64,000 bases of DNA from Raja brachyura. Its lineage: Eukaryota. Below, in pieces: positions 9,771-62,509 of this stretch. The notes under the pieces are model-generated. The model was not told the DNA's origin. It saw nothing but the letters and a program-made list of their open reading frames with translations, and did not search any database. The stretch is taken from assembly GCA_963514005.1 (NCBI GenBank), contig OY740792.1:36146001-36210000 (forward strand). The letters run 5' to 3'. A program made the translations under genes and the position numbers. Each line of letters begins with the position of its first letter. Position 1 is the stretch's first letter.

Positions 9771-10633
9771 GCAAAAGAAGACATTTCAAAGTGTGATATT
9801 AAGGCAATTATAGAATTGGGCGTTTAAGGGGAACAGGAAGATACAATTTTTGGACAGGGATTAAAGAAAAGTGTGGGGTAATATTAGCTAAAGAAACGAT
9901 GATAGCTGCGGGCAGGGATAATACAACAGGAGGATCATAAGATGAGGTTATGAGTTTTGGAATGAGATATGAAGATGGGTGGTGACCCGAAACGTCACCT
10001 GTCTGTTATCCAGAGATGCTACCTGACCCGCTGAGTTACTCCTGTCCTTTGTGTTTTCCTTTTGTATTCACAAGATCTAATTTAGTTGGTACGTAACCGT
10101 GTTTAACAAATGTGGGGTAGAAAAATCGCTGGAGTAACTCAGCGGGCCAGGCAGCAGCCCTGGGGAACGTGGATTGGTCAGAACCTTTCTTCAGACTCAA
10201 AAAATGCAGGAGGGGGGGTGGGGGGGGGGGGGGGGGAGTTTGTAATTTTGGATTTTGGATTTTGTTTTGGGAATGATAAGCAATTGGAAGGCACTTTTAT
10301 GGACCATCTTTGGTTTTTTGCACTAGTGTTACGGTGATAAATTTATTGAATATCTCGACCCAAAATGCTGCTTGTCCCGCTGAGTTACTCCAGGATTTTG
10401 TGCCTACCTTTCTGTTATTCCGAGGCTGTGCCCTCTGGTCCTAGACTCTCCCACTAGTGGAAACACCCTCTCCATATCCACACTATCCTGGCCTTTCACT
10501 ATTCAATGCAGTTAGATTTAGCATAGTTTCAAAAAAGGTTGAAGATAAACAAGGAGGATAATTTTAAATAAGGGTAAGGATGGCTTGACTAGATGAAGGT
10601 ATGATTAGGCATGGCGATAGCTAATTGAGGTAG

Positions 10634-12300
10634 GGTACACAAAATGCTGGAGAAACTCAGCGGGTGCAGCAGCATATATGGAGTGAAGGAAATAGGTAAC
10701 GTTTCGGGCCGAAACCCTTCTTCAGACTGATAGGGGGTGGGGGGGGGGGGTGGGGGGGAAGAAAGGAAAAAGGAGGAGGGGCCAGAGGGATGAGGGAGAG
10801 GTGGGAAGGGGAGGAGACAGCAAGGGCCAACTGAATTGAGAGAATTCAATGTTCATGCCAAGAGGATGCAGACTCCCCAAGCAGAATATGAGGTGCTGTT
10901 CCTCCAACTTGCGGTGTTGCTCACTCTGGCCATGGAGGAGGCCCAGGACAGAGAGGTCGGATACAGAATGGGAGGGAGAGTTGAAGTGCTGAGCCACCGG
11001 GAGGTCGGGTTGGTTATTGCGGACCGAGCGGAGGTGTTCGGCGAAACGATCGCCAAGCCTCCGCTTGGTCTCACCAATATATATCAGCTGGCATCTGGAG
11101 CAGCGGATGCAATAGATGAGGTTGGAGGAGGTGCAGGTGAACCTCTGTCGCACCTGGAACGACTGCTTGGGTCCTTGAATGGAGTGGAGGGGGAGATAAA
11201 GGGACAAGTGTAGCACCTCTTGCGGTTGCAAGGGAAAGTGCCCGGGGATGGGGTGGAGCGGGAGGGAAGGGAAGAATTGACAAGGGAGTTGCGGAGGGAG
11301 CGGTCTTTGCGGAAGGCAGACAGGGGGGGAGATGGGAAGATGTGGCGACTGGTGGGGTCACGTTGGAGGTGGCGAAACTGGCGGAGGACTATGTTGTATG
11401 TGCCGACTGGTGGGGTGAAAGGTGAGGACTAGGGGGACTCTGCCCTTGTTGTGAGTGGGGGAATGGGGAGAGAGGGCAGTTACGGAGTATGGAGGAGACC
11501 CTGGTGCGAGCCTGAACTATAGTGGGGGAGGGGAATCCCTGTTCTCTGAAGAATTAGGACATTTGTGATGCCCTGGTGTGGAACACCTCATCCTGGGAGC
11601 AGATGCGGCGTAGACGGAGGAATTGGGAATAGGGGATGGAGTCCTTACAGGAAGCAGGGTGGGAGGAAGAGTAGTCCAGGTAGCTGTGGGAGTCAGTGGG
11701 TTTATAATGGATGTCGGTCATGAGTGTATCCCCTGCGATGGAGATGGTGAGGTCAAGGAATGGTAGGGAAATGTCGGAAATGTTCCAGGTGTATTTGAAT
11801 GCCGGATGGAAGTTGGTGGTGAAACGGATGAAGTCAGTCAGTTGTGTGTGGGTGCAGGAGGTGACACCAAAGCAGTCATCGATGTAACAGAGGTAGAGGT
11901 CGGGGATGGGGCCCTGGTATGCTGCAAACAAGGACAAAGAGGCAGGCGTATCTGGGGCCCATGCGTGTGCCCATAGCAACGCCTTGTGTTTGGAGGAAAT
12001 GGGAGGAGTTAAAAGAGAAGTTGTTGAGGGTAAGGACCAACTCCGCTAGGCGGAGGAGGGTGTCAATGGATGGGTATGGGTTGGTTCTCCGGTCGAGGAA
12101 GAACCGGAGGGCTTTGTGACCATCCTGGTGGGGGATGGAGGTGTAGAGTGATTGGAGGTCCATGGTGAAGATGAGAAGATGGGGGCCTGGAGAATCGAAT
12201 GCGCGGAGAGTGTCTGAGGTATCTTGAACATAGGTGGGGAGGGATTTAACCAAGGGGGATAGGATGGAGTCAAGGTATGTGGAAATGTTGAACATAGGTG
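10634..12300 (-). mobile_element. Penelope-like retroelement, 5'-truncated and frameshifted: RT, GIY-YIG endonuclease and 3' pseudo-LTR with a hammerhead motif
   Basis: RT motifs FTMDLQSLYTSIPH, QTQGVAMGTRMGP, YIDDCFG and LPFLD. Endonuclease FTCTSSNLIYCIRC..CQLIYIGETKRRLGDRFAEH. The 3' UTR carries CTGAAGAAGGGTTTCGGCCCGAAACGTT at 10696-10727. Confidence 0.93.
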
Positions 12301-13212
12301 GGGAGGGAGCTAATTGAGGTAGATTCGTACAAGGCTTTTGACAAGGTCCTGCATGGCAGACCTGCTCAGAACAGTAAAAGCCCAGGGGACCGCATGAAGA
12401 GCGGTAAATTGGGTTTACAAGTGGATCAGCGGCAGAAAACAAAGGTAATATTTGATGTGTGTTTATGCGACAGGAATACCATTAGTGGTAGCATTCTGCG
12501 GTAGATCAGAACACATTCCCTCGCTTTTTGTAAGATATTACAACCATTTACATGTTATTGGACAGCCACCATAAAGATGTTTGCAGATAATATGCAAACT
12601 GTCCATGCAATAGACATGAAGGATGAAATACAGGGACTGCAGGGAAATACAGACTGTCTTGAGCTAGAGTAACTCAGTGGGTCAGGCATCATCTCTGGAA
12701 AAAAAGAATACGCGACGCTTCAGGTCGAGACCCTTCTGCAGACTGTCTGAAGAAGGGTCTCATCACGAAACATCGCCTGTTCCTTTTGTCCAGAAACGCT
12801 GCCTGACCTGCTGAATTACTCCAGCATTTTGTGGCTATCTTCAGTGAAAATCACTCCATGTGACATTTTAGGTTGAGACACTACTTCAGACAGATCCTTC
12901 CTGCACAAATGGAGTTTAGATTAATTTATTGTCATGTGTATCGAGGTACAGCAAAAAGCTTTGTTGCATACTAACCGGTCAGCAGAAAGACAATACATGA
13001 TTACAATCAAGCCGTCCACACTGTACAGATTCACGATGAAGGGAATAACGTTTAGTGCAAGATAAAGTCCAGTAAAGTCCAATTAAAGATAGTCCGAGGG
13101 TCTTTAATGAGGTAGATAGTAGCTCAGGACCGCTCTCTAGTTGTTGGTAAGATGATGCATTTGGGGAAATGGAACAGGGTAGGAGAATTCAGAATAAATA
13201 GGAGGTTATTAA

Positions 13213-13420
13213 AAAAGTCACAAGGTGCTGGTGTAACTCAGTGGGTCAGGCAGCATCTCTGGAGAACATGGATAGGTGACATTTCAGGTCAGATCCATTC
13301 TTCGACCTGAAAAGTCACCTATCCATGTTCTGCAGAGATGCTGCCTGACCCACTGAGTTACACCAGCACCTTGTGTCATTTTTTGTGAAGCAACATCTAC
13401 AGTTCCTTGTTTCTATATAC
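13213..13420. mobile_element. Palindromic PLE-derived short element
   Basis: Near-perfect inverted arms. Flanked by TAGGAGGTTATTAA and TAGGAGGATTCTAA (degenerate 14-bp duplication). Confidence 0.75.
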
Positions 13421-18913: not shown

Positions 18914-18919
18914 TATTAA

Positions 18920-19151
18920 GATCGACACAAAATGCTGGAGAAACTCAATGGGTCGGGCAATAAATCTGGATAAAAGGAATAGGTGATGTTTCAGGTGGGG
19001 ACCCTTCTTCAGAGTGGGAGTCTGAAGAAGCGTCTCAACCCGAAATGTGACCCATTCCTTTTATCCAGAGATGCTGCCTGACCCGCTGAGTTACTCCAGC
19101 ATTGTGTGTCAATCTTCGGTGTACTGCAGCAACTGCAGTTCTTTCCTTCAC
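18920..19151. mobile_element. Palindromic PLE-derived short element with hammerhead-like motifs on both strands
   Basis: Inverted arms. Perfect TGTATTAA duplication at 18912-18919 and 19152-19159. Confidence 0.85.
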
Positions 19152-22620: not shown

Positions 22621-23805
22621 GAGGGGGGGGGGTAATCATGTGTAAATCTCTTCTGCACTCTCTCTAAAGCCTTCACATCCTGTAATTCATGTTGGGAGCA
22701 GCAGCAGTAGAGTTGCTGCCTCACAACATCAGAGACCCAGGTTCAATCCTGACCATGGTGTTGTCTGTACGGAGTTTGTACATTCTCCCCCGTGACCTGC
22801 GTGGGTTTTCTCCAGGTCCCCTGGTTTCCTCCCTCACTCCAAAGACGCACAGGTTTGTAGGTTAATTGGCTTCATTTGAATTGTAAATTGTCCTTACTGT
22901 GTGTAGGATAGTGCAAGGGTGCGGATACCGCTGGTCGGTGCAGACTCGGTGGGCTGAAGGGTCTGTTTCCGTGCTGTATCTCTAAACTAAACAAAACTAA
23001 TATACTAATACCACAATGCCTAGAACTGTTAACACTCTGAATGTAGTTTAGTTAAGGTTATTGTCATGGGTACAGTGAAAAGCTTATATTGCATGCTAAC
23101 CAGTCAGCAGAAAGACAATACATGATTACAATCGACCCATCCACAGTGTACAGATACATGATAAAGGGAATAATATGAATAACACTTAGTGCAAAATAAG
23201 ACTGTGTAGACTGAATGTAACTGGGAGTGACTATAGTTTAGGAGAAATTCCTTAATTTAGTTTTAGTTTAGTTTAGAAATACAGCGTGGAAACAGGCCCT
23301 TCGGCCCACCGAGTCCACACCAACCACCAATCACCCATTCACACTAGTCCACGTTATCCCACTCTCTCATATACTCCCAACACACACGGGGGCAATTCAC
23401 AGAGACCTATTAACCGTACACTATACTGGTAGCTGGCTGCCTGTACACAGTGAATGGCTCAATTGTAATCATGTATTGTCTTTCCGCTGACTGGTTAGCA
23501 CGCAACAAAAACGTTTCAGTGTACCTAGGTACACGTGATAATAAACTAAACTGAACCTACAAACCCGCAGTTCTTTGTCATGTGGGAGGAAACCGGAGCA
23601 CCCAGAGAAAACCCACACGGTCACAGCAAGTACGTACAAAACGTCACACACACAGACAGCACCAGAGGTCAGGATCAAACTCAGGTCTCTGGCGCTGTGA
23701 GGCAGTGACGTTACCACTGCCACTGTGCCACCCTTGATAGTTTAAATGTTATCAGCTCATCTGCTAAATTGCTCCCTCTCGTGGAAATACGTGCTATTAC
23801 ATCTT

Positions 23806-23910
23806 AGGTAGATAAAAATGCTGGAGAAACTCAGCAGGTGAGGCAGCATCTATGGAGCGAAGGAAAAGGAGACGTTTCGGGTCGAGACCCTTCTTCAGAC
23901 ATTTACATTA
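23806..23910 (-). mobile_element. Single-arm PLE-derived element with an intact minimal hammerhead ribozyme core (23871-23900)
   Basis: Minus strand GTCTGAAGAAGGGTCTCGACCCGAAACGTC. Perfect 13-bp duplication GCTATTACATCTT at 23793-23805 and 23911-23923. Confidence 0.85.
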
Positions 23911-24454
23911 GCTATTACATCTTGTTGCCTGTGGTTTCCTGTGAGTCAAAGAGTCAAGAGTGTTTAATTGTTATATGTACTGGCAACAGAACCATTATTT
24001 AAACTAAGTGTTATTAAATTAAATAACAGGTCTGTTAACACAGTAACACACAGATGTGTAATGATCAAACATACGATAAATGAATAACCCTAATACTAGT
24101 TAACCATAATAGCGCAAAATCGATGTCCTTAATGCAACCAGACACAGTCCATAGAAGATCATAGTTGCTGAGGTAAGTTTGTAGTTAGTGTCGTGCAGTG
24201 TTCAAGAACCGATGGTTGTTAGGAAGAAGCTGCTCCTGAACCTGGACCTTGCAGTTTTCAGGTTCCTGCACTTTCTTCCCGATGGCAGGAGTGAAATGAG
24301 CATGTGCCCAGGGTGGTGTGGGTCTTTGATGATGCTGGCTTCCTCTTTGAGGCAGCGCCTCCTGTAGATCGCTTTAATGGTGGGGCGGTCAGTACCCGTG
24401 ATGTACCAGGCAGTGTCCACCAATCTCTGTAATCAGATTCGCCCTAGTCAACAC

Positions 24455-26773: not shown

Positions 26774-28486
26774 TAAATACAATCAAGTCATACACAAATA
26801 GAACAGGTAAAGATAAACACTGGAGTGGAGAAAGTAATTTTCACCTTTGTAGCATTATAGTTCCAGATTATAGTAGCATTACAGCTGTATTTTCTGCCCG
26901 ATGGAAGCAGGGAGAAAAAGAAACGACTGGGTGAGACGTCTTTGATCATGTGTGCTGCTTTTCCGAGGCAGCATGGTGTAGATGGACTCAATGGTGGGGG
27001 GTCTGGTCTGTGTGGCGGACTGGGCTGCATCAACAACTCTCTGTGATTTCACACGGTCTAGGGCAGAGCTGTTCCCAAACCAAGCTTTTAAAACAGATTA
27101 GTTAATTTCACTTAGATAGATACAAGGTGCTGGAGTAACTCAGTAGGTCAGACAGCATCTCTGGAGAAAAAGGATGGGTGGCGTTTTGGGTTGGAACCCT
27201 TCTTCAGACTTTTCTCCAGAGATGCTGCCTGACCCGACGAGTTACCCCAGCACTTTGTGTCTATCTTTGGTATAAACCAGCATCTGCAGTTCCTTCGTAC
27301 ACAGTTGAGTTCATTTGCTGAGGAAGTATAAATCAAATATTTCCAAGGGAAGTCTAGAGTATTGATTTTTGACAATGTCTTGGTGTTACATTTAATGAAG
27401 ATGATTTATACTCTCTGCTGCAGCTTTCACAATTTGGTGGAGCATTTCTTTCTCCATTCTTGTGCAAAAAACTCAATTTTATAAGGTAATTATAGTAACG
27501 TGGGTGTCAGCTTGATCTCTGGGTGATAATGCTGTATCAAATATTGTCCACCTAAAAGCATTTTCCAATGTGTAGCAAATAAGGTTTCAATTATGGGAAT
27601 AGACTTTGGCAATTGAGCCCTAAACTGGTTAAAGGGGAGACCAGATATATTTTATGTTCCAATGCAAACATTGGAAAGATCCTCAGAAAGAAAATAAAAA
27701 TTATATTTACAAACTCTAAGAGCTGGAGGAACTCTGCAGGTCTTGCAGCATTTGTGGAGGGGATGGACAGGTGATGCTTTGGGTTCAGACCATTCTTCAG
27801 TCTGGTAGGAATACAGGGGATTGTGTCCAACCAGGATGAAGAAGAGTCCCGACCAGAAACGTCGCCTGTCCATTCCCTCCACAGATGCTGCCTGACCTGC
27901 TGAGTTCCTCCAGCACTTTGGGTTCGGCTCCAGATTTCCAGCATCTGCAGTTCCTTGTGTCTCTGTATTTTGGGATAGATTCAGAGAGTCTGAAGGAGTG
28001 TCCACACCCTAAACATCATCTGTCCATTCCCTCCACCGATGCTGCCTGACCCACTGAGTTCCTCAGCACTTTGTGTCTTGCTCAAGATTCCAGCAACTGC
28101 AGTCCTGTGTGTCAACAACTCTATCTAATTCTTGCCTCGTTAATCTTTAACTCGCAATGTAAAATATAGACAGACTCCTCAACCTTTCCACACAGGAAGG
28201 CATTCATATAGATGCCCGTCTTTGGTAGTGTACAAAACCCTTTCAACTTCAGATGTGACAGTTTGGCAAAGGTTGCTTGAGCTTAGATTCATGGTTCGTA
28301 CAAATATCCTTTATCTGACACTAACAAGTATTCACACTTCACTAAATTATTCACAGGCAGCACGATGTTGCGCCCGCAGAGTTGCTGCCTTGCAGCGCCA
28401 AAGACCTGGGTTCAATCCTGACTATGGGTGTTGTCTGTGTGGAGTTTGTACGTTCTCCCTGTGACCTTGTGGGTTTTCATTGGGTG

Positions 28487-28872
28487 CATTGACGTTCATA
28501 CCGCTGGGGTGTAAACTACCCAAGCAAAATATGTGGTGCTGCCCCTCCAATTTGTGGTGGGACTCACTCTGGCCATGGAGGAGGCCCAGGACAGAAAGAT
28601 CGGATTTGGAATGGGAGGGGGAGATGAAGTGCTGGGCCAACGGGAGATCAGGTTGGTTATTGCGAACTGAGCTAAGGTGTTGGGCGAAGCGATCGCCAAG
28701 CCTGCGCTTGGTCTCACCGATGTAGAGCAGTTGACACCTAGAGCAGCGGATGCAATAGATGAGGTTGGAGGAGGTGCAGGTGAACGTCTGCCTCACCTGG
28801 AAAGATTGTTTCGGTCCTTGGATGGAGTCGTGGGTGGCGGTAATGCGACAAATGTAGCATTTCCTGCGGACC
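28487..28872 (-). mobile_element. Penelope-like GIY-YIG fragment inside an HE1 SINE
   Basis: FTCTSSNLIYCIRCSRCQLLYIGETKRRLGDRF. The SINE halves lie at about 28355-28485 and 28875-29000. Confidence 0.88.
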
Positions 28873-31800
28873 TTGGCTGCTGTAAATTGTCCCTCGTGTG
28901 TGGAATAGAACTTGTGTGAACAGGTGATCGCTGGTTATCGCAGACTCAGTGAGCTGCAGGAGCCGTTTCAACGCTGTATCTCTAAATTAACCTAAACTAA
29001 AATAGATCATATTATATTGAATTGATTGATTGGAAGATATAGCATGAAAACAGGACCTTCAGCCCAATGACTCCATCGATCACTTGGTCACACTCGTTCC
29101 ATGTTACCCCACTTTCTCATCCACTCTCTACACACTGGGGGCAACTTCACAGATGGCTAATTAAGCTACAAACCCACATGTCTTTGTGATGTGGGAGGAA
29201 ACCGGAGCACCCAGAGGAAACCCACATGGTTACAGGGGGAATGTGTAAACTCTGTGCAGACAGTAGCAAAGGTCAAGATCGAACCCGGGTCTCTGACGTC
29301 TGCTTCATCAAATTTTGGGTGCTATTTAAACATATGACCCTTAAAACCAGAAAGGCATAAAAGAAGTTCAACAAATGATAGGAAGCATGCTCTCGGCTTC
29401 ACCACATTACATCTTTTAGTTCATATTACATCTAACAGGGAATCCAATATCAATGAGATATATTGTTCCCCTCTGCAATGCCATTATTATACTATTACTC
29501 ATACCACTGTCTTGCTTCACTTTGCCTCTTGAAATAATCTCCTTAGCTCCATGTAGTCAGATGAATGACTCTTTCACTCTGACAATTATTGGTATGAAAT
29601 ACAACAATTGCTTCTCCTGAATCTTCTGAAGGAATCACATTGAATGAAAGAAACAGCGTGGAAACAGGCCCTTCGGCCCACCGAGTCCACACCGACCATA
29701 AATCACTCCTTCACACTAGTTCTAAGTTATCCCACTTTCTCATCCACTCCGTGTACACTAGGGGCAATTTACAGAGGATAATTAACCAACAAACCCGCAC
29801 GTCTTTGTGATGTGGGCGGAGACTGTAGATGGAGGAACTCAGCGGGTCAGGCAGCATCTGTACGACAGCCAACATTTCGGGTTGGGACCCTTCTTCAGAT
29901 ATTGTAGTTTAGTTTAGTTCGGAGAAACAGTGCAGAAACAGTCCCTTCAGCCCATCGAATCCACACTGACCGTATACCAGCACTACCCTACACAAACTAG
30001 AAACAATTTACAATCTTTACCAAAGCCAATTAAGCTGCAAACTTGCACGTCTTTGGAGTGCAGGAGGAACCCGAGCACCCGGGGAAAACCCATGCTGTCA
30101 CGGGGGAGAACGTACACACTCCGTACAGACAGAACCCACATATATCATAACTTTATTGGTTTCCTTTGAAAATATTGACCAACATAATTCCCTTTCACAA
30201 CTGACTGCTGATGTCCTGGAGAATATCACAAATTAATTCTATCACTGTGCAGCGACACATTTTAAATATAGCGTTAGAATTTGTGATCACACTCTGAGGT
30301 ACAAATTGTTCGGTGATTTTATTCATTTCATAGCGAGGGAAAAGTACAAGATCAACCCGCAGAGAACATGGGTTTAAGGTGCGGGGGGAAAGCTTTAATA
30401 GGAACCTGAGGGGTAACTTTTTCACTCAAAGGGTAGTGGATGCATGGAATGAGCTGCCAGAAGAGGTAGTTGAGGCAGGTACTCTCACGACATTTAAGAA
30501 ACATTTACATGGATAGTAAAAGCTTTAGAGGGATATGGGCCAAATGCAGGCAAGTGGGACGAGTGGAGATGGGACATGTTGGTCGGTGTGGGCAGGTTAG
30601 GCCAAGAGGCCTGTTTTTACGCTGCAAGACGCTTTGACATGTTGTCAGATAATTTTGCATGTAATAAAGGAAGGATTTTAAGGGGGAATTTGCTTTGAAG
30701 GTAGAAGAATTAGAAACTCTATTGAGGGAAAATGTTTTTTTAGATTTAGGTTTAGGTTTATTATTGTCACGTACTGAGATACAGTGAAAATCTGTGTTTT
30801 GTTTCGCATGCTGTCCTAATAGAGCAGCTATACCATACATAGACATAATCAGTTCGGTGTTCACTTTCAAGCTTCTGTACCTTCTGCCAGATGGGAGCTG
30901 AGAGAAGAAGGAATAACCAGGGTGGGACAAGTCTTTCATTATGTTGACTTTGAAAGGAGGTAGACAAAAGTAAAATATTAATAAACATTTTCCACTGAGA
31001 ATATAATATGTATTCTCCTATATCCAACGCCAGACAGGAAGGTTGGCGAGGGAATGGGAAGGGGAGTTAACATGGTTAGCAACCGAGCGATCCAGCGGGC
31101 CCTCCGTGGAACAAGCCAAGTGCTCGGCAAAAATATTTAGATACAACTACTCAACTAAATTAACAAGCATGTAATGAGGTCAGGCTGCACGAGAAGTGTT
31201 TTTTCCCCCAATTAATAATTGATGTATGAAACAAACTTCAAACCAAAGCCCCATTTCTATGTCAATTAACAACTTTGAAGAATAACAGCTTCAATATTTG
31301 GTTGAGAAGAGGGCTGGACATTGTAAAGATAAGGGTAGTCAGAGAACATGGAGAATAATGTAGCTTGCAATGTGAAGTGTCCTTAATTAAAAAGACATGT
31401 TACAGATTTGTATCTTTTTCAAAGTTTAACAAATTATTCTCTTCCCCTCTGGGCTCTGTATCACTTTGATAGCAGCCATCCGAGTCAATCCGGCATGAGC
31501 TTCATTGGAAGGAACAGATACACGAATTACACAAGGTTCTGATGTTCTTATCTTCATATTTTATGCATATGTTTTCTGGCTGTCTGACAAGATAATCTTT
31601 AACTACCAACATAGAATGGTGTATTTTATTAGGGAAAAGAAGACCCATGGTATGCTCGCCTTCATTGGTTGAGGCATTGAGTGTGAGAGTCAGGAGGTCA
31701 TGGTGCAGCTCCACAAGACTTTGTAGACACAAAGATCTGCAGATGCTTTAAACTTTAGACTTTCGAGCTACAGTGTGGAAACAGGCCCTTCGGCCCACCG

Positions 31801-36700: not shown

Positions 36701-37150
36701 CATACAGACAGCACCCGAGTTCAGGATCAAACCGGGTCTCTGGTGCTGTGAGGCAGCAACTCCACCGCCGTTCCACGGTGCTGCCCTGAAGCAAAGGAAA
36801 ACAGGTTAGTCTGCAAATTGGGCTCTTGATTGGGAATCGGATCCATTTATGCATCACCATTATTCGCTTAAGGCAATACTGGCAGTTTGTTTTTGCAACG
36901 TCTCTAGACCTTGAAAGTTTTCCTTCTGCATTAGCAACATGGCTGCACACGGTATTCGAAGTGCGGTCTAATCACATTTTGGTGACTGTCCAGTCCATTA
37001 AAATCCTTGTGTTTTTTCCCCTTCATTCTCCCCATTTTAAAGGTTTCAAAGGTCTTAAAGGTCCTTTATTGTCCCATGTACCAATTAAGGTACAGTGATA
37101 TGTAAATTATCATACAGAAAAAAAAGCAATAAGGCACACAATTACATAAC

Positions 37151-39605
37151 TTTCCACACATAGACTGGGAAACACATTCTGTAAATGGGCTGGATGGTTT
37201 GGAGTTTGTAAAATGTGTGCAGGATAGTTTTTTGCAGCAATACATAGAGGTGCCTACTAGAGGAGGGGCAGTGCTGGACCTCCTGTTAGGAAATGAGACG
37301 GGACAGGTGGTGGAGGTATGCGTAGGGGAGCACTTCGGGTCCAGTGATCACAATACCATTAGTTTCAATATAATTATGGAGAAGGACAGAAGTGGGCCTA
37401 GGGTTGAGATTTTTGATTGGAGAAAGGCTAACTTTAACGAGATGCGAGATGATTTAAAAGGAGTGAACTGGGACATTTTGTTTTATGGGAAAGATGTAGA
37501 GGAGAAATGGAGGACATTTAAAGGGGAAATTTTAAGAGTACAAAATCTTTATGTTCCTGTTCGGTTGAAAGGAACCAGTAAAAATTGGAAAGAGCCCTGG
37601 TTTTCAAGGGAAATTGGACATCTTGTTCGGAAAAAGAGGGAGATCTACAATAATTATAGGCAGCATGAAGTAAATGATGTGCTTGAGGAGTATAAGGAAT
37701 GTAAAAAGAATATAAAGAAAGAAATTAGAAAAGCTAAAAGAAGATATGAGGTTGCTTTGGCAAGTAAGGTGAAAGTAAATCCAAAGGGTTTCTACAGCTA
37801 TGTTAATAGCAAAAGGATAACAAGGGATAAAATTGGTCCATTGGAGAGACCGAGTGGACAGCTATCTGCAGAGCCAAAAGAGATGGGGGAGATATTGAAC
37901 AATTTCTTTTCTTCGGTATTCACCAAGGAGAAGGATATTGAATTATGTGAGGTAAGGGAAACTAGTAGAGTAGCTATGGATACTATGAGTTTCAAAGTAA
38001 AAGAAGTACTGGCACTTTTGAAAAATATAAAAGTGGATAAGTCTCCAGGTCCTGACAGGATATTCCCTAGGACATTGAGGGAAGTTAGTGTAGAAATAGC
38101 CGGGGCTATGACAGAAATATTTCAAATGTCATTAGAAACTGGAATAGTCCCCGAGGATTGGCGTACTGCGCATGTTGTTCCATTGTTTAAAAAGGGTTCT
38201 AAAAGTAAACCTAGCAATTATAGACCGGTTAGTTTGACTTCAGTGGTGGGCAAATTAATGGAAAAGATACTTAGAGATAATATATATAAGTATCTGGATA
38301 AAGAGGGTCTAATTAGGAACAGTCAACATGGATTTATGCCTGGAAGGTCATGTTTGACTAATCTTCTTGAATTTTTTGAAGAGGTTACTAGGGAAATTGA
38401 CGAGGGTAAAGCAGTGGATGTTGTCTATATGGACTTCAGTAAGGCCTTTGACAAGGTTCCTCATGGAAGGTTGGTTAAGAAGGTTCAACTGTTGGGTATA
38501 AATGCAGGAATAGCAAGATGGATTCAACAGTGGCTGAATGGGAGAAGCCAGAGGGTAATGGTGGATGGCTGTTTGTCGGGTTGGAGGCAGGTGACTAGTG
38601 GGGTGCCTCAGGGATCTGTGTTGGGTCCTTTGTTGTTTGTCATGTACATCAATGATCTGGATGAAGGGGTGGTAAATTGGATTAGTAAGTATGCAGATGA
38701 TACCAAGATAGGGGGTGTTGTGGATAATGAAGAGGATTTCCAAAGTCTACAGAGTGATTTAGGCCAGTTGGAAAAATGGGCTGAAAGATGGCAGATGGAG
38801 TTTAATGCTGATAAATGTGAGGTGCTACACCTTGGCAGGACAAATCAAAATAGGACGTACATGGTAAACGGTAGGGAATTGAAGAATACAGTTGAACAGA
38901 GGGATCTGGGAATAACCGTGCATAGTTCCTTGAAGGTAGAATCTCATATAGATAGGGTGGTAAAGAAAGCTTTTGGTATGCTAGCGTTTATAAATCAGAG
39001 CATTGAGTATAGAAGCTGGGATGTAATGTTAAAATTGTACAAGACGTTGGTGAGACCAAATCTGGAGTATGGTGTACAATTTTGGTCGCCCAATTATAGG
39101 AAGGATGTCAACAAAATAGAGAGGGTACAGAGGAGATTTACTAGAATGTTGCCTGGGTTTCAACAGCTAAGTTACAGAGATAGGTTGAATAAGTTAGGTC
39201 TTTATTCTCTGGAGCGCAGAAGGTTAAGGGGTGACTTGATAGAGGTCTTTAAAATGATGAGAGGGATAGACAGAGTTAATGTGGACAAGCTTTTCCCTTT
39301 GAGAATAGGGAAGATTCAAACAAGAGGACATGACTTTAGAATTAAGGGACAGAGGTTTAGGGGTAACATGAGGGGGAACTTCTTTACTCAGAGAGTGGTA
39401 GCGGTGTGGAATGAGCTTCCAGTGGAAGTGGTGGCGGCAGGTTCGTTGGTATCATTTAAAAATAAATTGGATAGGCATATGGATGAGAAGGGTATGGAGG
39501 GTTATGGTATGAGTGCAGGCAGGTGGGACTAAGGGAAAAAAGTTGTTCGGCACGGACTTGAAGGGCCGAGATGGCCTGTTTCCGTGCTGTAATTGTTATA
39601 TGGTT
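37151..39605 (+). mobile_element. Young 5'-truncated CR1 LINE with an uninterrupted ORF2 (end of the APE domain plus full RT)
   Basis: Frame open from NFPHIDW (37148) to the stop at 39532. Motifs include [41 protein letters not shown] and KYADD. 3' UTR stem-loop and tail present. ATAAC at 37146-37150 and 39606-39610. Confidence 0.96.
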
Positions 39606-40575: not shown

Positions 40576-42518
40576 GGGTGATTCTTCAGTAAGTGTTTAC
40601 TTTGAAGTTTCTGGATTATAAAACTTACATTTTTGCAACTTTGAAAGTTGTTTCACATAGATGAACTCTGCTATGGGAAAAATATTTTTGCCGCAATCTT
40701 TTAGAGAATTTAATTTATTTTTTCCTCTTCTTTTTCCAGGTTGCCCATTGCATTCAGTCATATCCGCCGCATTTTTATGATGAACAACACTGTAAAATAT
40801 AACTGATTTAAGAATATAAAATCAAATTTTTGTCGCAGTCTTTCAAATTATAGAGTATCTTCCTCAAATAAACCACCAAACAAATACTTTTTTCAGTCTA
40901 ACGCATTGATTTTAAACCTTCGTAACAGTTTACTGCCCAAAAAAGTGGTGATTTCAGCAAGAATGGTAACCGTCACATAACCTTTCACCAACTTCCTCTA
41001 AAACAATAGTAACTTCAGATGAATAGGCCAATGCATACTGTTCATTTATCAATTACAATTCATAATTATGGTCATTGTTGTATTATTTTACACATTATGA
41101 GCATAAAATACTTTGTGACGGACATGACAGTGTGATGGAGATGGTCAAGTTCAGGAGTGTCACGTGACGGAGATGACTAAAACTATCTTTAGGGCTAGGG
41201 TTAGCGTTAAAGCTAGATTTAGATTTAGGGTTAGGGTTATTCATGTCATCTGCAAACGATGTGCATGGACAGGAGTCCCAGCAATTATCCTGTGGATCAA
41301 CTAACGGAACAAACGGGCCGGGTCACTCCCGGTGAGCAGGGACACTCCCATGGACTAGGAATGAGAGAGGTGGTGGGGGGGGGGGGGGGGGGGGGGGCAG
41401 TGAGAAGACCCGGGGGCCTTATCCTCCGTGCCATCGAGGCTGGCTGCGGGAGGTATTAATCCATCATGTCCATCACGGTCATCTCCGTCACTTACCCCCA
41501 ATCTCCCGGACTCCAGCGCCGACTCCATCTCCAACTCCAGCCGGACACAAAAGCCTTTTGCAGCCGTTGCCTCTTCCCGCCCTCACCAGGGAACAAGGGC
41601 TGAAGAGGGCCGGGCGTGGAGAGGAAGAGGCGACGGCTTCAACAGGCCTTTGTGTCCAGCTGGTGCTGGAGCTGGAGCTGGATGGATATCGGGGATTAAG
41701 TTACGGAGATGATGGCCGTGGCGAGTATGGTGGCCCAAGCCTTTAGCCCAGCATGGCCTCGCTGGAAGGCCATGCCTGGCCATATCGTTTGGACGAATGG
41801 CACATGGCACGAACACATCTCCAGAACAACTCAAGAAAGAACAAAATGCTTTTGGTTTTCTAAGAGTTCAACACCGTTCAGTGGTGCCGGTGATGAAAGG
41901 TACTCACCCGTTACGCAGGAAAAAGCGGATTAGGAGAAATTCGCATGGTAGGGGACTTTCAAATTCCGTGGTCTATTGAGGGCGGAAGTGCGCGTCTATT
42001 CCATTTAAATCCATGTGGGATGGCTCAACAAAGGTGAGTGACGGAAAATTACTCTAATCGTCGGGACAAGGAATTTGTGAAAAACGGTAAGATTTATAAT
42101 TTTATCAAGAATAGAGGAATTTTTTTAAGGGTGATAAATATTTTAATTACAAATACCTACTGTTTAAAAGTATTTCAGATAGATCCCCCATTAAATAAAT
42201 AAGCCGACTGGAAATCTCACAAGTAACCATCGGGCCATATGGTTTTCGGGGGTTGGACACCGAACATCGGGAATGTCTCTCCACACGTTGTGAAAGGAAC
42301 TCTCCCCCCAATTAGTCCCTTGAACAAGTGTTGCCATTCAATAAGATGACAACTGATTCAACTTTTCCCTGAACATCGGGAAAAAAACAAAACACTTTAT
42401 TCATTTAGAGTTTAATTTTTATTTATGAGGATTATGTTTGTTAACAATATAGAAAAAGAAGAAATGGGATAGAATTACGGATTTTCCGTATATACAGCAT
42501 CAAAGTAGCGGGGCACCC
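40576..42518. mobile_element. 1.94-kb non-autonomous DNA transposon with GGGTG...CACCC termini and a 4-bp target duplication (possibly Sola2-like)
   Basis: Interrupts a Rex1 3' UTR exactly: ...GGAAAGA-CAAT|insert|CAAT-ACATGATTACAATC. CAAT lies at 40572-40575 and 42519-42522. TACTTTGA occurs sub-terminally at both ends in inverted orientation. Confidence 0.8.
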
Positions 42519-47002: not shown

Positions 47003-47294
47003 GAAGGAAGTCTTCAAATTGCAGCAATGGAGATCAGGTGTCAAGCTAGGAACTACTTTCTTTGTCCAATATGGACAGGAAAGGTTTAGAGGGCAAAGGA
47101 GACCAGCACAGTGGGCCAACCTGGTGGGCATGGACAAGATGGGCCGAAAGGCCCATTTCCGTGCCAGAGAGCTCCATTACTCCATCGACTGAAATAATTG
47201 CACCATCCATTCCCACGTTTCATTAGTCACCTGCCTTTCATCAGTTGGCGTCCTCTCTAAAATAAGGGATAATCAAACACATTTTAGTTCTTAT

Positions 47295-50647: not shown

Positions 50648-52992
50648 CTGAAAATAAAGAGGCAAAAATGTTGTTAGCAGTGGTAATGTTCTTCGAAACA
50701 ATGAATTGCATATCAAACGTTTCTTCCCAACTATCAGGATATCAAACACTACAAACTCCAACTAAACTTCAATCCAAGCTACCAACTGCCTGGGTTGTAG
50801 GGATTGAGGTTTAGTTTGGTTATACCCAGAGTATAGTTATTTAAAAGACTGTGAAGTGCCAATAGACTACCAGAACCACTAGAACTATATCAGGAGGGCG
50901 ATTTTCACTTCTTCGATTTAACCACAATGGAAACATCGGGTCAAAGAATGAAGAAGTTCAACGGCCAGGACTGCATCTAAAGAAAGCTTCACACATTTGC
51001 ATTTGGAGGAAGTGCTCAAGAGAGCTTCTCTTCAAATCCTACCATCTAAAATATATTCTGTTTTTGAGTACCCATGGTCTTGTTATTCAAACATAAACAT
51101 CATTCAAAATTAAAAAAAATACAAAACAAAAACTGTGCAAAAAGTCTTCATTCATTCTCAGTGTCTACACATTTAATCCGAATAAACAACCAGAGGACAT
51201 TGGTTTAAGGCGAGGAGGTAAAGATTCAATAGGAACCGGAAGGCATCTTTTTCACACAGAGCATGGTGGGTGTATGGAACAAGCTGCCAGAGGAGGTTGT
51301 TGAGGCAGGTACTGTCACAACATTTCAACAAATGTTTGAATAGGTACATGGATAGGATAGGTTTAGAGGGGTATGGGCCAAATGCATTCAGGTGGAACGA
51401 GTGTAAATGTGTTGTTGGGCAAGTTGGGCTGAAGAGCCTGTTTCCATGCTGTATGACTCCATTACTCTAATAGTGGCATACTCAGCAGTTTAGTTTAGTT
51501 TCAGAGAGACAGCATGGGAACAGGCCCTTCGGCCCACCAAGGCCACGCTGCCCGTTTACTTTAGGTCTATGTTATCCCATTATCTCATCCACTCGCTACA
51601 CACCAGTGGCAATTTACAGAGGGTCAATTAACCCACTAACCCGCACATCTTTACGATGTGGGAGCACCCAGAGCAAACCCAGGCAGTCACAGGAAGAACG
51701 TGCAAAGTCCACACAGAAGATGGCACCCGAGGTCAGGATCGAACCCAGGTCTCTGGCGCTGTGAGGTAGTGGCTTTACCCGCTGCACCACTGTACTGTCA
51801 ACTGTGTTGCACCTATCATTAAACAAGATACCCTTGCCACTCTTGTGGTCCTCTGGGGTAATATCCCTTCCCGTTTGAGGGGTGTCCCACCAGACTCAGC
51901 CTCCTCATTGTCCAGCAGCAGAAGGATCCTAGAGTATTGTGCTCCCCCACAGAGCCTTGCCGTTGGCTGCACTGAGCTTCAGTAAGTCCCTCAACATGTA
52001 CTCTCATCCAGTCATCTCTTTACAAATGGAGCTGTACAGTGGCGCAGCGGTAGAGCTGCTGCCTTAGAGCGCCAGAGACCCTGGTTCAAACCTGACTTTG
52101 GGTGCTGTCTGTACGGAGTTTGTACGTGCTCCCTGTGACCATGTGGATTTGCTCCGGGTGCTCTGGTTCACTCCAACTCTCCAAAGAATTACAGGTTAAT
52201 TGGCTTCGGTGAAATTGTAAATTGTGTCGGGTAGTGCCAGTGTACGGGATGATCGGTGGTCGTTGCAGACTCGTTGAGCCGAAGGGCCTGTTTCTATGCT
52301 GTACCTCCAAAGTCTTACTGAATAAAGTAGGGATTAGCAAGATGATTCAAGCAGTTGGTAGCCTCTGTTGAATGAATCATTAGAAGCAATAAAGAGCTCT
52401 GAATAATTCTGTTCATTTGAATGGAGATTATAAAAGAAGTAATTAAATTTGCGTGCCCATAAGCCAATGATTTGGTCTTGGCTCATGTGTCTAGTGTCCT
52501 GAGGCAATGTCAATGTGGAAAGTACTTCAGTATTAGCATCCACTGGATAAAATAGCAGCAGCATGGCTCCATCAGTAATACAAACGGAACCAGCACTTGA
52601 TGTAAATTGAGTGTGCAAATAAATTAGGAAAACCAGTTAAAAAACCCTAGAGTAATCACGAAAAGACTCAAAGTGCTGGAGTAACTCAGCGGGTCAGGCA
52701 GCATCTCTGGAGGACACTTGAGGAAGGGGCCTGACCAGAAACATCACCGATCCATGTCCTCCAGAGATGTTGCCTAACCCACTGAGTTACTCCAGCACTT
52801 TGTGTCTCTTTTGCAAAGCAGCATCTGCAGTTCCTGTTCCTACATTTATCAACAACTATCCATCAATATACCCAAGGTCGCAGGCACTTTAACTTGTAAT
52901 ACGTATAATAACAGAACTCTAATTATAAGCGAATAAATGTTCTAAATCATTCACTTACATTATCCATCAGCTAAGCATTATTAATAAACAAA

Positions 52993-53215
52993 CAGAAGAT
53001 ACACACAAAGCTGGAGTAACTCAGCGGGACAGGCAGCATTTCTGCAGAGAAGGAATGGGTGATGTTTCAGGTCGAGAATCTTCTACAGACTGAAATTCAC
53101 TGGAAAGAGAAACGGGTCTTGACCCGAAACATCACCCATTCCTTCTCTCCAGAGTTACTCCAGCGTTTTGTGTCTATCTTTGGTTTAAACCAGCATCTGC
53201 AGTTCCTTCCTTCAC
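52993..53215. mobile_element. Palindromic PLE-derived short element
   Basis: Inverted arms. Perfect 13-bp duplication ATTAATAAACAAA at 52980-52992 and 53216-53228. Confidence 0.87.
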
Positions 53216-57600: not shown

Positions 57601-57931
57601 TAAAATAGGTCGAATTACTTCAGAGATACAAGGTAGAAACAGGCCCTTCAACACACCGAGTCCATGTCCTGTACATTAATACTATCCAACGCACACTGGG
57701 GACAATGTCCAATTTTTACCCAAGTCAATTAAGCTACAAACCTGTACTTTTTGGGGACGTGAGAGGAAACTGGAGGACCCGCAGAAAACCCACACGGTTA
57801 CAGGGAGAACGTAAAACTCGATACAGACAGCACCTGTGGTCAGGATCGAACCCAGGTCTCTGGCGCTGTGAGGCTGCAACTCTACCACTTGGCCACCATG
57901 CCACCCTGGGTAAAATGGTTGCTGGCGTTAC

Positions 57932-58345
57932 CTGAAGGTTGTACATAAAGGGTTGTTCTTCCGGATTCATCGCTTCCTTGAAGAGCCCATTGGTTCTGGC
58001 CGTTTGTGACCCATTCCTCCACCCTGCAATAGTAGACGCCACTATCACCTGGCGCAACGCTGGTCATGATCAGCTTGTAGTTATTGCTGGAAACCTTCAC
58101 ACTTTGCAGGGTCGACTTGTGGGAATCTGCCGTGATGTTCGCAAGGTAACGCTGGATGTTGTCACGATCTGTATGGAGCAGCTCTCTTCGAGATGCCTTG
58201 GGCTGCCCCTCGCTTTCGAAGAACCATGTCACGGAGAACTGAGAGCTTGCCTGCGTTTGGTTGTTGATAATGCACTCGAGTTCAAAGGCCGCATCCTCCT
58301 TGAGTGACTCACGCCTCCCCGTGTCAGCGACTTGTAGATTGGCAT
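57932..58345 (-). CDS. CD101: CD101-like gene, membrane-proximal Ig-V exon (probable domain 7)
   Basis: Acceptor ttctgcAG, donor G|GTAAC, 414 bp, phase 1-1. Contains FELEC...VTWFF...DSGVYYCRVEEWV...QGSDESGRTTLYVQPS. Confidence 0.85.
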
Positions 58346-59443
58346 CTGCAGAACCGACGGAAGACAGGGACAACAGTGGCACTTAATTTAGTCTAAATGC
58401 AATAAAAAGGAACTACAGATGTTGGCAGACCAAAGATAGACACAAAATGTTGGAGTAAGTGGGGAGTGCTGGGGAGAAGGCAGGAGAATCGGGATGAGAG
58501 GGAAAGATAGATCAGCCAAAATTGAATGGAAGAGCAGACTCGATGGGCCAAAGTGCCTAATTCTGCTCCTATGACTTAGGAAGTTATGAATATATGTAAT
58601 CAGCGAGTCAGGTAGAATTTCCATAAAAATGGATAGGGGATGTTTCGGGTCGGGACCCTTCTTCAGTTTCGACCCAAAATATCGCCCATCCATTTTCTCC
58701 AGAGATGTTGCCTGAACCACTGAATTACTCCAGCACTTTGTGTCTTTTTGAAATGACTGTATATTTAGACTTTAGAGACACAACCTGGTGGCAGGCCCTT
58801 CTGCCCACCGACCAGTGATCATCCTGTACACTGGCACTATCCTACACACTAGGGTCAATTTTATAATTTACCAAAGCCAATTAACCCACAAACTTGGACG
58901 CTTTGGAGCGTGGGAGGAAACTGGAGCACCCGGAGAAAACCCACATGGTCACACGGAGAATGTATAAACTCCATACAGACAGCACCCATAGTCAGGATCT
59001 AACCCGGGTCTCTGGCGCTGTAAGGCAGCAAATCACCCGCTGCGCCACTGTGCTGCCTCTATCTACGTGTGGTATGTCTGATCTGTTTGGATGGCATGCT
59101 TGACAAAGCTGTTCACTGTACCTCGGTGCACCAAAAAATAACAATAAACCTAAACCAAAACTTGAATCTAAATCCGTGGTGTAGGATGGAACTGCAAATG
59201 CTGGTTTGCACTGAAGAGAGCCACAAAACGCTGGAGTTACTCAGCAGGTCAGCATCTCTGGAGAAAAGGAATAGGTGAATCATCACCAAAATCATGTTGT
59301 CCACAGATGCTGCCTGACCCACTGAGTTACTCCAGCACTTTGAGACGTTTGGAGAACTCATGGAGATGTAAATAATCACCTAAACCGTCACCTAAATCAG
59401 TGGCATTGGTTCCGGTCAAGAGGCGTTTGAGAGACTTGTTTAC

Positions 59444-59851
59444 CTGGTGTATGCACTTGGACAGTGGTCGCTGCCGATACAGCCTTGCCCACTTTATACC
59501 AAACATTGTTGGGGTCTAAAAGCCATTCTGTGACCGCACAACAATAATTCCCTTGATCGGTCGCATCAGCTTTCCCTATAATTAGTTTGTAAAGATCACG
59601 CAAAGTCTTCTCAACCCGCATCTTCGTCCCCTCCTGATTGCTGGCTCGCAATTCCTTGTTGTATCGAATGACGTTGTTGCGATCAATGTTCAGAAGAGTT
59701 ATCTCCTGCGCTTGTGGCTTTTTGAAGAGCCATGAGACTGAGAACTGGGAATCATTCCGGGTTTGAGCAAAGATTTTACAATCGAGTTCAATGATGTCGC
59801 TAACCCTTTTCCATATAGTTGTGTCCCCTTGTGCAAGCTGCAACCGGCTTA
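59444..59851 (-). CDS. CD101: CD101-like gene, Ig-V exon (probable domain 6)
   Basis: Acceptor ttctgcAG, donor G|GTAAA, 408 bp, phase 1-1. Contains ELDC...VSWLF...DQGNYCCAVTEWLL. Confidence 0.85.
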
Positions 59852-60851
59852 CTGCAGAAGTAGAAGAGAAAACATTGGAAAAAAAATGTTATTATATTTC
59901 TTTGTACCATTTAAGCACAGTGGCGCAGCTGGTAGAGCTGCTGCCTCACAGTGCCAGAGACCCGCGTTCAATCCTCACCTTGGGTGCTGTCTGAATGGAG
60001 TTTGCACGTTCTGTGTGGGTTTCCCCCGGGTGCACCAGTTTCTTTCCACATCCTTGCACTAAGTGATTTTTAACTTCATCTTAATTAATATTAATGTTTT
60101 AATTCATTTACAACAGTCAGTTAGGTTTTACTTTGAATTTTCTTCAGTCAGATTGTTCATATTTTGAATATTAACAACTGTGAAGAAGGTTCCCGACCTA
60201 AAATGTAGCCAAACCATTCCCTCCACACATGCTGCCTGACCCACTGAGTTACTCCAGCACTGTGTGTTTTGATTTAATATTCAACTGAATTATCAGGCAA
60301 CTGAAACACCCTCCAACTGGAGAGCAGTCCTGACCTCCCACCTACCTCACTGGAGACCCTCGGGTCATCTTTAATCGAACTTTACTGGACTTCAATTGAC
60401 ACAAAATGCTGGAGTAACTCAGCGGGTCGGGCAGCATCTGTGGAGAAAAGGAATAGGTGACATTTCGAGTCGGAACCCTTCCAAAGACACCCTCATTCTC
60501 AGGAAGGGACCTGACCCAAAGCGTCACCTATTCCTTTTCTCCAGAGATGCGGCCTAAACCGTTGAGTTACTCCAGCATTTTGTGTCTATTCACTGGTCTA
60601 AGTATTATCTTGCACTAAACGTTATACCTTGGATCCTGCATCTGTACATTGTGGGAGCTTTGATTGTAATTGCGTATTGTCTTTCCGCTGAATGGATAAC
60701 GCACAACACAAAAGCTTCTCACTGTACCTCGGCACACGTGACAACAAACTAAACTAACTACAATTTTAAAAGTCCTATTTTTCTTCCTTCAGGTAAAAAA
60801 GAGGAAGCCAAGCTGGGAACATGCAAAGACGAGGAGGGATGATTGCCTTAC

Positions 60852-61253
60852 CTGGGGCTTGAACCACCACCTGCAGGATGTTTGACGTCACGCTGACTAT
60901 CCTGACCCATTGATTCGGCCGTTGTCTTTTCCACAATACTGCGTCACACAGAAACTTGCCAGCTTCCAGGCTGCTGACACTGGACACACGCAAGCGGACC
61001 GTGTTGGACGCTGTTTTAGCCACTATCATTTTCCCTTTGAAGCTCACTGCCTTGTCTCCCCACTCGATCGCTGTGTCGTGGCTGAAAGTCACAAGGTGGA
61101 AGCTCTCGTTCGAATTAGCCGGCTGAAATTTCCACGACACGTCAATTGGGAGGTGATTGATGATTGGCGGCTGGATGAAGCACTGCAGTTCAAATGTACC
61201 GTAGTATCTTGCAGTTGGCGTGCGGGTTATGGCAATGACTTTAAAGATGCTTT
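60852..61253 (-). CDS. CD101: CD101-like gene, Ig-V exon (probable domain 5)
   Basis: Acceptor ttgacAG, donor G|GTAAG, 402 bp, phase 1-1. Contains FELQC...VSWKFQPA...IEWGD...EAGKFLC, typical of IGSF3/CD101 domain 5 as recalled. Confidence 0.85.
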
Positions 61254-62007
61254 CTGTCAACAAATGTTTAAAAAGAGAGAAATTAATCTAAACACATTTC
61301 CTCCGGGTGCTCCCACATCCCAAAGACTTCCAGTTTGTAGTTTAATTGGCCCTCTGTAAATTGCCCCTTGTGTGTAGGGTATGGATGAGAAACTGGGATA
61401 ACATAGAACTAGTGGGAACAGTGTTAAAGAAGGAACTGCAGATGCTGGAGAATCGAGGGTACACAAAAGGCTGGAGAAATTCAGCGGGTGCAGCAGCATC
61501 TAAGGAGTGAAGGAGATAGGCAACGTTTTCGGTCGAGACCCTTCTTCAGTCTAAAGTTGGCCGGAGAGTCTATTTCCACGCTGCATCTCTAAAAGAAACC
61601 TATGGGGCAACAATTTTCCACATGGAGGGTGGTGGGTGTATGGAATGAGTTGCCAGAGGAGGTAGTTGACGCAGGTACTATAAGAAGATAGGACCGTTCG
61701 GTGAACTTTTGTGACTTTGTTGCTGCCAGAAAAGTGTGCAAAACAAAGCATTCCACTGTACCTAGGTACACATGACAATAATGTATCTGTGATCATTGAA
61801 TATAAGCGATACTTGGATGGGTACATGGATTGGAAAGGCTTGGAAGGATATTGGCCACACGGACTAGTGTAGATGGGACATCTTGGTCAGCGTGGGCGAG
61901 TTGGATCTATTTCCATGCTGAATGACTCTGACTGTGCCTCTAGGCGGTAAATCCCTTGCATCAAAACAAAACAAAGTATCATAGACACTTGATGTTGAAA
62001 TGCTCAC

Positions 62008-62412
62008 CCAGAGATGTAATCGTCACTGCCTTATCACTGCTGACATATTCTCCGATTAGTTTCCAGTTTTGGTTGAGCACTGCTGTCCATTCCATCACTT
62101 TGCAGGAGTACAGTCCTTCGTCTGAAATCCTGGCATCATAAATGCCCAACGTGAAAGTATCGGACCCCACTCTGGCCATCCGGATTTCTCCGTGACCAAC
62201 TCGCTCACGGTAGGGTGGAGCAGTAACTTGGACACCATTCTGCTGCATCTCAATTATATCACTCTTCACGTTGTGTTTGTCCATGAACTGCCAAATAACA
62301 GAAAGCTGCCCAGGTACTGTGGCCCCTGAACGAACATTGCAGGCAAACTGAAGAACATCTCCTTCCAAAACGTTCGTTGCATTAATGCTGATCTCCACCT
62401 TAAGGTCGGCCT
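62008..62412 (-). CDS. CD101: CD101-like gene, Ig-V exon (probable domain 4)
   Basis: Acceptor cttcacAG, donor G|GTGAG, 405 bp, phase 1-1. Contains FACNV...VIWQF...DEGLYSCKVMEW (EWI-type motif). Confidence 0.85.
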
Positions 62413-62509
62413 CTGTGAAGCAAGAGAGAGTTGGTGTTAATGTTGGCAGTCTTTGATGCAATGTATACTTGGTAGAGGAAAAGCAAGATTTAAATCATGT
62501 TTACAAGTT

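Follow-up and report, generated by a model that had tools for sequence, protein, structure and literature searches.

Penelope-like elements (PLEs) of the endonuclease-positive kind encode a reverse transcriptase (RT) with a C-terminal GIY-YIG domain and, in the parts of the literature consulted, occur as partial tandems with head-to-head arms, a one-sided tail published as 30-40 bp long, duplications of about 9-17 bp and solo pseudo-LTRs, or pLTRs (PMC8557442, PMC3846280). The element of the skate Raja brachyura analyzed here resembles them in these features. Solo pLTRs of rotifer PLEs, according to the sections used of PMC3846280, are few, lack duplications and are ascribed to recombination or deletion; in the skate, in contrast, solo units are the main product, are flanked by duplications and have a fixed start. 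By what route PLEs acquire their tails, inverted ends and partial tandems has yet to be settled (PMC8557442, in the part consulted; PMC11167929).

The hammerheads described for metazoan PLEs by Cervera and de la Pena (2014), in the portion of that paper available (PMC4209133), share with the skate motif the core, the bulged base before helix II and the loopless palindromic helix III, and are likewise mostly single dispersed motifs, ascribed there to truncated PLEs. Their helix I has 4-5 bp, with a 2-bp precedent in D. virilis, and their helix II has 6-8 bp, unlike the 4 bp found here. In the anole element Poseidon PAc (Frangieh et al. 2024; PMC11167929), as in the skate, two 3' end sites bound the tail, the hammerhead lies just upstream and use of the cut RNA as template is not indicated; its ORF begins in helix II, whereas the main ATG of the skate element is at +165, and the main text is silent on a fixed 5' end and on the assignment of arms to sites. 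Non-LTR retrozymes, as far as covered by the parts consulted of PMC7229834 and bioRxiv 10.64898/2026.07.22.740005, also have a type I hammerhead, kinship to PLE pLTRs and no protein, but form head-to-tail arrays with a ribozyme per unit and are expressed as circles; the skate inserts are single or head-to-head and their unit is not bounded by cut sites (3' ends at +95/+131). Judging from the sequence comparisons reported below, the skate inserts are stubs of a Neptune-like PLE, each consisting of ~95 or ~131 bases from the beginning of the repeat unit, and not a separate mini-element.

The insert at 23806-23910 and its hammerhead motif

The window, i.e., the whole 64,000-nucleotide stretch of DNA analyzed, contains at 23806-23910 an insert that a preliminary description had reported as 105 bp long with a perfect 13-bp duplication. 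The duplication is exact (left copy 23793-23805, right copy 23911-23923) and does flank the 105 bases, but only 95 of them are element. Sequence and genome matches place a tail-less PLE stub at 23806-23900 on the minus strand, extending from unit position +1 (the G at 23900) to the first 3' end site at +95; the remaining 10 bases (23901-23910, minus strand) are a non-element junction filler similar to part of the target duplication, since most genome matches begin at query base 11. Throughout, unit positions are counted from the G of GTCTGAAGA, which is +1. Over bases 23806-23900 the 29 closest copies in the genome show 95-99% identity, and eight of them run on upstream into the PLE 3' end.

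The minus strand of the insert reads as the preliminary description gave it, and sequence and a descriptor scan locate a minimal type I hammerhead motif at 23871-23900 (minus strand): CUGAAGA at 23898-23892, a bulged A, helix II at 23890-23879 (GGGU/ACCC with loop CUCG), GAAA at 23878-23875 and a palindromic ACGU, with the predicted cut after 23871, i.e., after GAAACGUC. The assignment to the minimal type I hammerheads of PLEs agrees with the presence of CUGANGA, helix II, GAAA, palindromic helix III and NUH. The helix I of about 2 bp attributed to this copy was an overestimate, for U stands opposite U at the first pair and the copy therefore has 0 contiguous helix I pairs. Among 27 family matches to the descriptor, helix I has 2 bp in 14 and 0-1 bp in nine, and the minimal descriptor recovers just five of the window's 56 copies (see below).

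The preliminary description had proposed a hammerhead scan and a comparison of core and flank conservation. The descriptor found 29 matches in 644 kb, 27 of them within the stub family (reversed control, 0), and in five subfamily consensuses 2 of 26 hammerhead columns vary, versus 15 of 58 downstream columns (p 0.047), one of the two variable columns being in a loop and the other pair-preserving. This lower variation lends weak support to putative selection in the source elements. The lowest-energy predicted folds differ from the hammerhead, with folding z-scores of -0.01 to -1.02, and an Rfam scan gave 15 matches at E up to 5, with no hammerhead among them. A CUGAUGA...GAAACGU string without a clear helix II was also seen outside the stub family, at 47218-47244 of the window on the minus strand.

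Copy number and the parent element

Copies were searched with an iterated profile on the 64-kb window and on 58 stretches of 10 kb picked at round coordinates of large contigs. The window presented 56 profile matches (reversed-sequence control, 0) spread over 1453-63086, with 5,295 bases in total, which corresponded to 14 head-to-head pairs and 28 singles, i.e., 42 insertion events. All 20 positions previously listed overlap profile matches, although the total is 56 and not the ~20 copies proposed; the claim of a density near that of SINEs holds, as the SINE profile gave 48 matches in the same window. The sampled stretches contained 207 matches, a density of 3.6 per 10 kb (bootstrap 2.8-4.4) that extrapolates, if the sample is typical, to ~0.96 million copies in 2.7 Gb. 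Genome-wide, one 77-base stretch of the youngest subfamily occurs in 16,036 exact copies (control, 0), and the core plus a downstream anchor in 98,398 exact matches (control, 0), versus the ~4,000 hammerheads of coelacanth and ~9,000 of Xenopus that the part of PMC4209133 consulted gives by other search rules. The stub family may already be named in Dfam or Repbase. Metagenome loci obtained by a pattern scan were discarded as relatives: a partial profile match was present in 1 of 80 (of at least 120 loci) and was taken as chance.

The parent unit measures 3,965 bp (3.97 kb), as obtained from long copies and from the tandem period, and is organized as hammerhead (+1), first end site at ~+95, a 36-base tail to ~+131, ATG at +165, RT-GIY-YIG and 3' UTR. 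Its 865-aa frame contains DKG and YIDD motifs, with GIY-YIG at the C-terminus; Pfam gave a GIY-YIG match at E 0.0012, under the cut-off, and no RT match, and the RT piece has 150 scored relatives in the genome. Between RT and endonuclease there is a Cys-rich linker, C-x4-C-x2-C, a trait common to the Neptune and Nematis clades in the part of PMC8557442 consulted, and its presence points to one of these two clades for the parent. Features of endonuclease-positive PLEs are present, namely the partial tandem with pLTRs, an inverted arm, a one-sided tail of 30-40 bp and the target-site duplication, and by these traits the parent is classed as an ordinary endonuclease-positive, Neptune-like PLE with nothing unusual as a family.

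A 5'-truncated PLE with broken RT frames, GIY-YIG, 3' UTR and unit +1 at 10727 is located at 10634-12307 (minus strand), between 15-bp duplications at 10619-10633 and 12308-12322; no other copy among the 56 in the window has PLE sequence upstream. Another PLE copy left a GIY-YIG fragment at 28422-28934 (minus strand), whose 3' end has no profile match. At L120-L123 (G000:C18, ~46.36-46.37 Mb), four or more PLE units with near-identical junctions are arrayed at the 3,965-bp period, which makes this place a candidate source locus. An upstream frame of 41 codons begins at an ATG at +53 in 28 of 30 whole-body copies (L121 1553-1668 = unit +53..+168), and a donor-like AAG/GTATGC is found at +163, two bases ahead of the main ATG (L121).

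Ends, duplications and head-to-head pairs

The ends were inspected in 97 young copies of one subfamily, all located in the initial 6.2 Mb of contig C1 and selected on presence of the core. In 59 of them (up to 4 of the 59 ambiguous) the 5' end lies at -6..+3, nine bases round one G; no ends were found at -7..-16, and the other 38 copies extend 18 to at least 690 bases upstream, with ends evenly spread upstream of -8. Per base, there are 5.9 ends in the start window versus 0.047 at 8-200 bases upstream (~125-fold). Since this set had required the core, a second count took 229 copies found through their 3' half, where the 5' end was not a criterion and copies that had brought in their locus were left out: 77 begin at -7..+3 and 39 extend further upstream. 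In this set no start peak was seen at the ribozyme cut site, with 9 of 229 starts at +29..+33, the per-base level of the neighboring bins; hence the template is not usually cut RNA. The GUC immediately ahead of the core was likewise discarded as a cleavage site, the match at +3 being missing in only 1 of 97 copies, a mutated long one. Among the 30 whole-body copies, of which four belong to one array, nine have their start at +1 or a few bases from it, and 21 have an upstream piece measuring 25 to >1,400 bases. The 3' ends of the 97 young copies fall mainly at two sites, 66 at ~+86..+98 and 29 at ~+129..+134, and none of the 97 continues past the second site into the body.

Just upstream of the start, long copies of different subfamilies have only CTGAC or CTAAC and YCAG in common. 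The YCAGTC at +1 resembles the initiator consensus, and likewise a splice acceptor. An extra G ahead of the start, the mark that a cap would leave, was seen in one subfamily in 9 of 15 copies (p 0.014, post hoc) but in another in only four of nine, an ambiguous signal. A slip-back signature is present at the junction of 6 of 59 copies versus 0.9% of background; being defined post hoc and partly overlapping the template, it was left out of account. Contigs (4 runs, 3 studies) were considered for the RNA end and set aside, as their loose ends just before +1 may be upstream sequence of other subfamilies and may be DNA; their apparent GT-starting skips of ~148 bases were not accepted as splicing, for they are present in a run without an RNA label too and fit a short shared word.

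Target duplications of 9-17 bp flank 30 of the 59 young short copies (control 1.7%), whereas exact duplications of at least 9 bp are found in only 6 of the 42 mostly old window events (control 0.5%). Marks of PLE-driven insertion were recovered, namely duplications of 9-17 bp, a pair of 3' end sites and a one-sided tail, the last being already described for PLEs in the parts consulted of PMC8557442 and PMC3846280.

Head-to-head copies amount to 28 of 56 in the window and 59 of 207 in the sampled stretches. The pair at 52992-53207, with a 13-bp duplication, has a left arm that stops at the first site and a tailed right arm; that at 18916-19143 has a single tailed arm. One tailed and one untailed arm were observed in 61 of 74 classifiable pairs (50% expected, p 6e-9 versus independence), and in 25 of 34 pairs of an unselected sample; this one-tail rule is broken in 13 of the 74, and 18 of 92 pairs were unclassifiable. 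In three inserts the inverted arm consists of tail only and has no sequence in common with the other arm. Arms of one pair are closer to each other than to other arms (0.120 vs 0.216), and some joints are located at +11..+17, inside the palindromic helix II. Rfam microRNA matches below the gathering score at 13209-13407 and 41519-41681 of the window have long inverted repeats as their source; the former is a head-to-head stub pair, and such pairs can therefore pass for microRNA precursors.

Origin of the stubs

The stubs are probably written into nicked DNA by the PLE enzyme, which would prime near the front of the RNA and run off its 5' end. The initiator-like +1 would be where the RNA starts, and reverse transcription would begin at the two end sites, as it does in the anole element; from the copies of these sites near the RNA 5' end, priming would yield a short run-off cDNA, akin to a retroviral strong stop, and head-to-head pairs would arise if the nicked strands each prime at one site or the other. 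The hammerhead would be carried along because it is located between +1 and the priming sites, its cutting would be unnecessary for stub formation, and stubs would mostly be dead ends, as they are without sequence downstream of the priming sites. In vitro, the anole element uses two internal start sites and both strands are nicked and extended; its hammerhead cleavage requires protein and is dispensable for insertion (PMC11167929). PLE transcripts begin inside the pLTR, according to the parts consulted of PMC2377424 and PMC8557442. In D. virilis Penelope the start lies upstream of an intron terminating at the hammerhead (PMC4209133 and PMC2377424, in part), so that +1 as a start would differ from the fly element. 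The scatter of starts over nine bases instead of one counts against the run-off model. The literature searched, which lay outside subscription journals, Repbase and Dfam, gave no description of stubs with a fixed start as products of run-off.

Ordinary random 5' truncation, which the preliminary description had kept as a fallback, is an extremely improbable origin: PLE copies are usually 5'-truncated (PMC8557442, PMC8969392, in the parts consulted) and the ends upstream of -8 are evenly spread, but the start is fixed in 59 of 97 young and 77 of 229 anchored copies, and the ~125-fold excess of ends in a window of about ten bases refutes this origin for the sampled subfamilies. The preliminary description itself favored non-autonomous, retrozyme-like units mobilized by the PLE protein; a family of this kind, retrozyme- or SINE-like, would have its own masters, be processed by the hammerhead and be mobilized in trans. 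The fixed length, the duplications, the very high number and the less variable hammerhead columns fit such a family, and animal retrozymes derive from pLTRs (bioRxiv 10.64898/2026.07.22.740005, in part). Cut RNA, however, would be without the core, which the stubs retain, and the 9 of 229 starts at +29..+33 form no cut-site peak. Nor are the short copies set apart from the long ones: in five clusters of 138 copies both kinds are mixed in four, the nearest neighbor of 16 of 24 long copies is a short one, young short and long copies have variants in common (Fisher p 0.47), tails are present in 18 of 59 young short and 14 of 38 young long copies, and no variants private to short copies versus long ones were found in the 138- and 97-copy sets. 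The oldest cluster had no long member among 10 sampled copies, which may reflect reference choice. Inverted arms and frequent target repeats apart, short copies have no 5' flank in common; a direct piece lies upstream in only 4 of 59, with a regular array in none, and no head-to-tail short units were detected, the only array seen being of whole 3,965-bp PLE units. The run-off model is favored also by a duplication-flanked insert (L082 1063-1155, minus strand) that joins unit +164..+200 to +41..+95 within one duplication, so its template contained body sequence; the join is read as a template jump, to sequence that lies downstream of where priming occurs, and two further body pieces just upstream of units suggest templates carrying the body. 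As the copies sampled show neither private variants nor tandem short units nor a peak of 5' ends at the cut site, the retrozyme-like family was given up as very improbable.

Truncation at a fixed point, in which a longer RNA is reverse transcribed from a 3' copy of the start site and the enzyme is halted at +1 by a protein, a fold or a pyrimidine tract, appears unlikely. The 38 of 97 young copies that extend past +1 do imply longer templates or strand transfers, a pyrimidine-rich tract lies upstream in all subfamilies and in the predicted fold the tail pairs to the opening bases of the unit; against this, the fold would halt the enzyme at its 3' side and not once copied, the folding z-scores (see above) only reach -1.02, the upstream tracts vary between subfamilies while the start is constant, and whole-body copies end at the same place after 4 kb. 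It is also very improbable that +1 is a splice-related RNA end and that pairs arise by fold-back self-priming on the antisense template. CTGAC...YCAG is conserved upstream in most long copies and +2 follows YCAG, the D. virilis intron ends at the hammerhead (PMC4209133, in part), self-priming has been proposed for rotifer PLEs (PMC3846280, in part) and the joints at +11..+17 fall in the palindromic helix II, but short copies lack a common upstream exon and starts are most frequent at +1/-1 and not on the A that would serve as branch point. Tail-only arms, of which there are three cases, are impossible by self-priming, whereas they could result if the nicked strands each prime at one site or the other.

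Whatever their origin, the stubs do exist and in very great number, as products of an element of known type, and show a useful mechanistic pattern that can be tested. As a wider form of the run-off reading, we tentatively regard it as possible that most of the ~1 million inserts are integrated strong-stop cDNAs, for which a dimeric enzyme would prime both nicked strands at +95/+131 on one RNA and run off at the capped 5' end at the ribozyme; if true, this single cycle would explain the tails of PLEs together with their inverted and solo pLTRs, with no need for ribozyme cleavage. The 16,036 exact young copies represent many natural insertion footprints, and the fixed start and the one-tail rule make predictions directly testable in the existing in vitro assay. 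Huge genomic hammerhead counts should be read with caution, as they can be retroelement-leader passengers and not active ribozymes.

Two other features of the window were recorded. A LINE-type reverse transcriptase, apparently young, occupies a 799-aa open frame at 37133-39532 on the plus strand (Pfam RVT_1, E 2e-34), and four exon-sized frames, three with immunoglobulin V-set matches, lie at 57882-62494 on the minus strand, where the nearby stubs are intronic.
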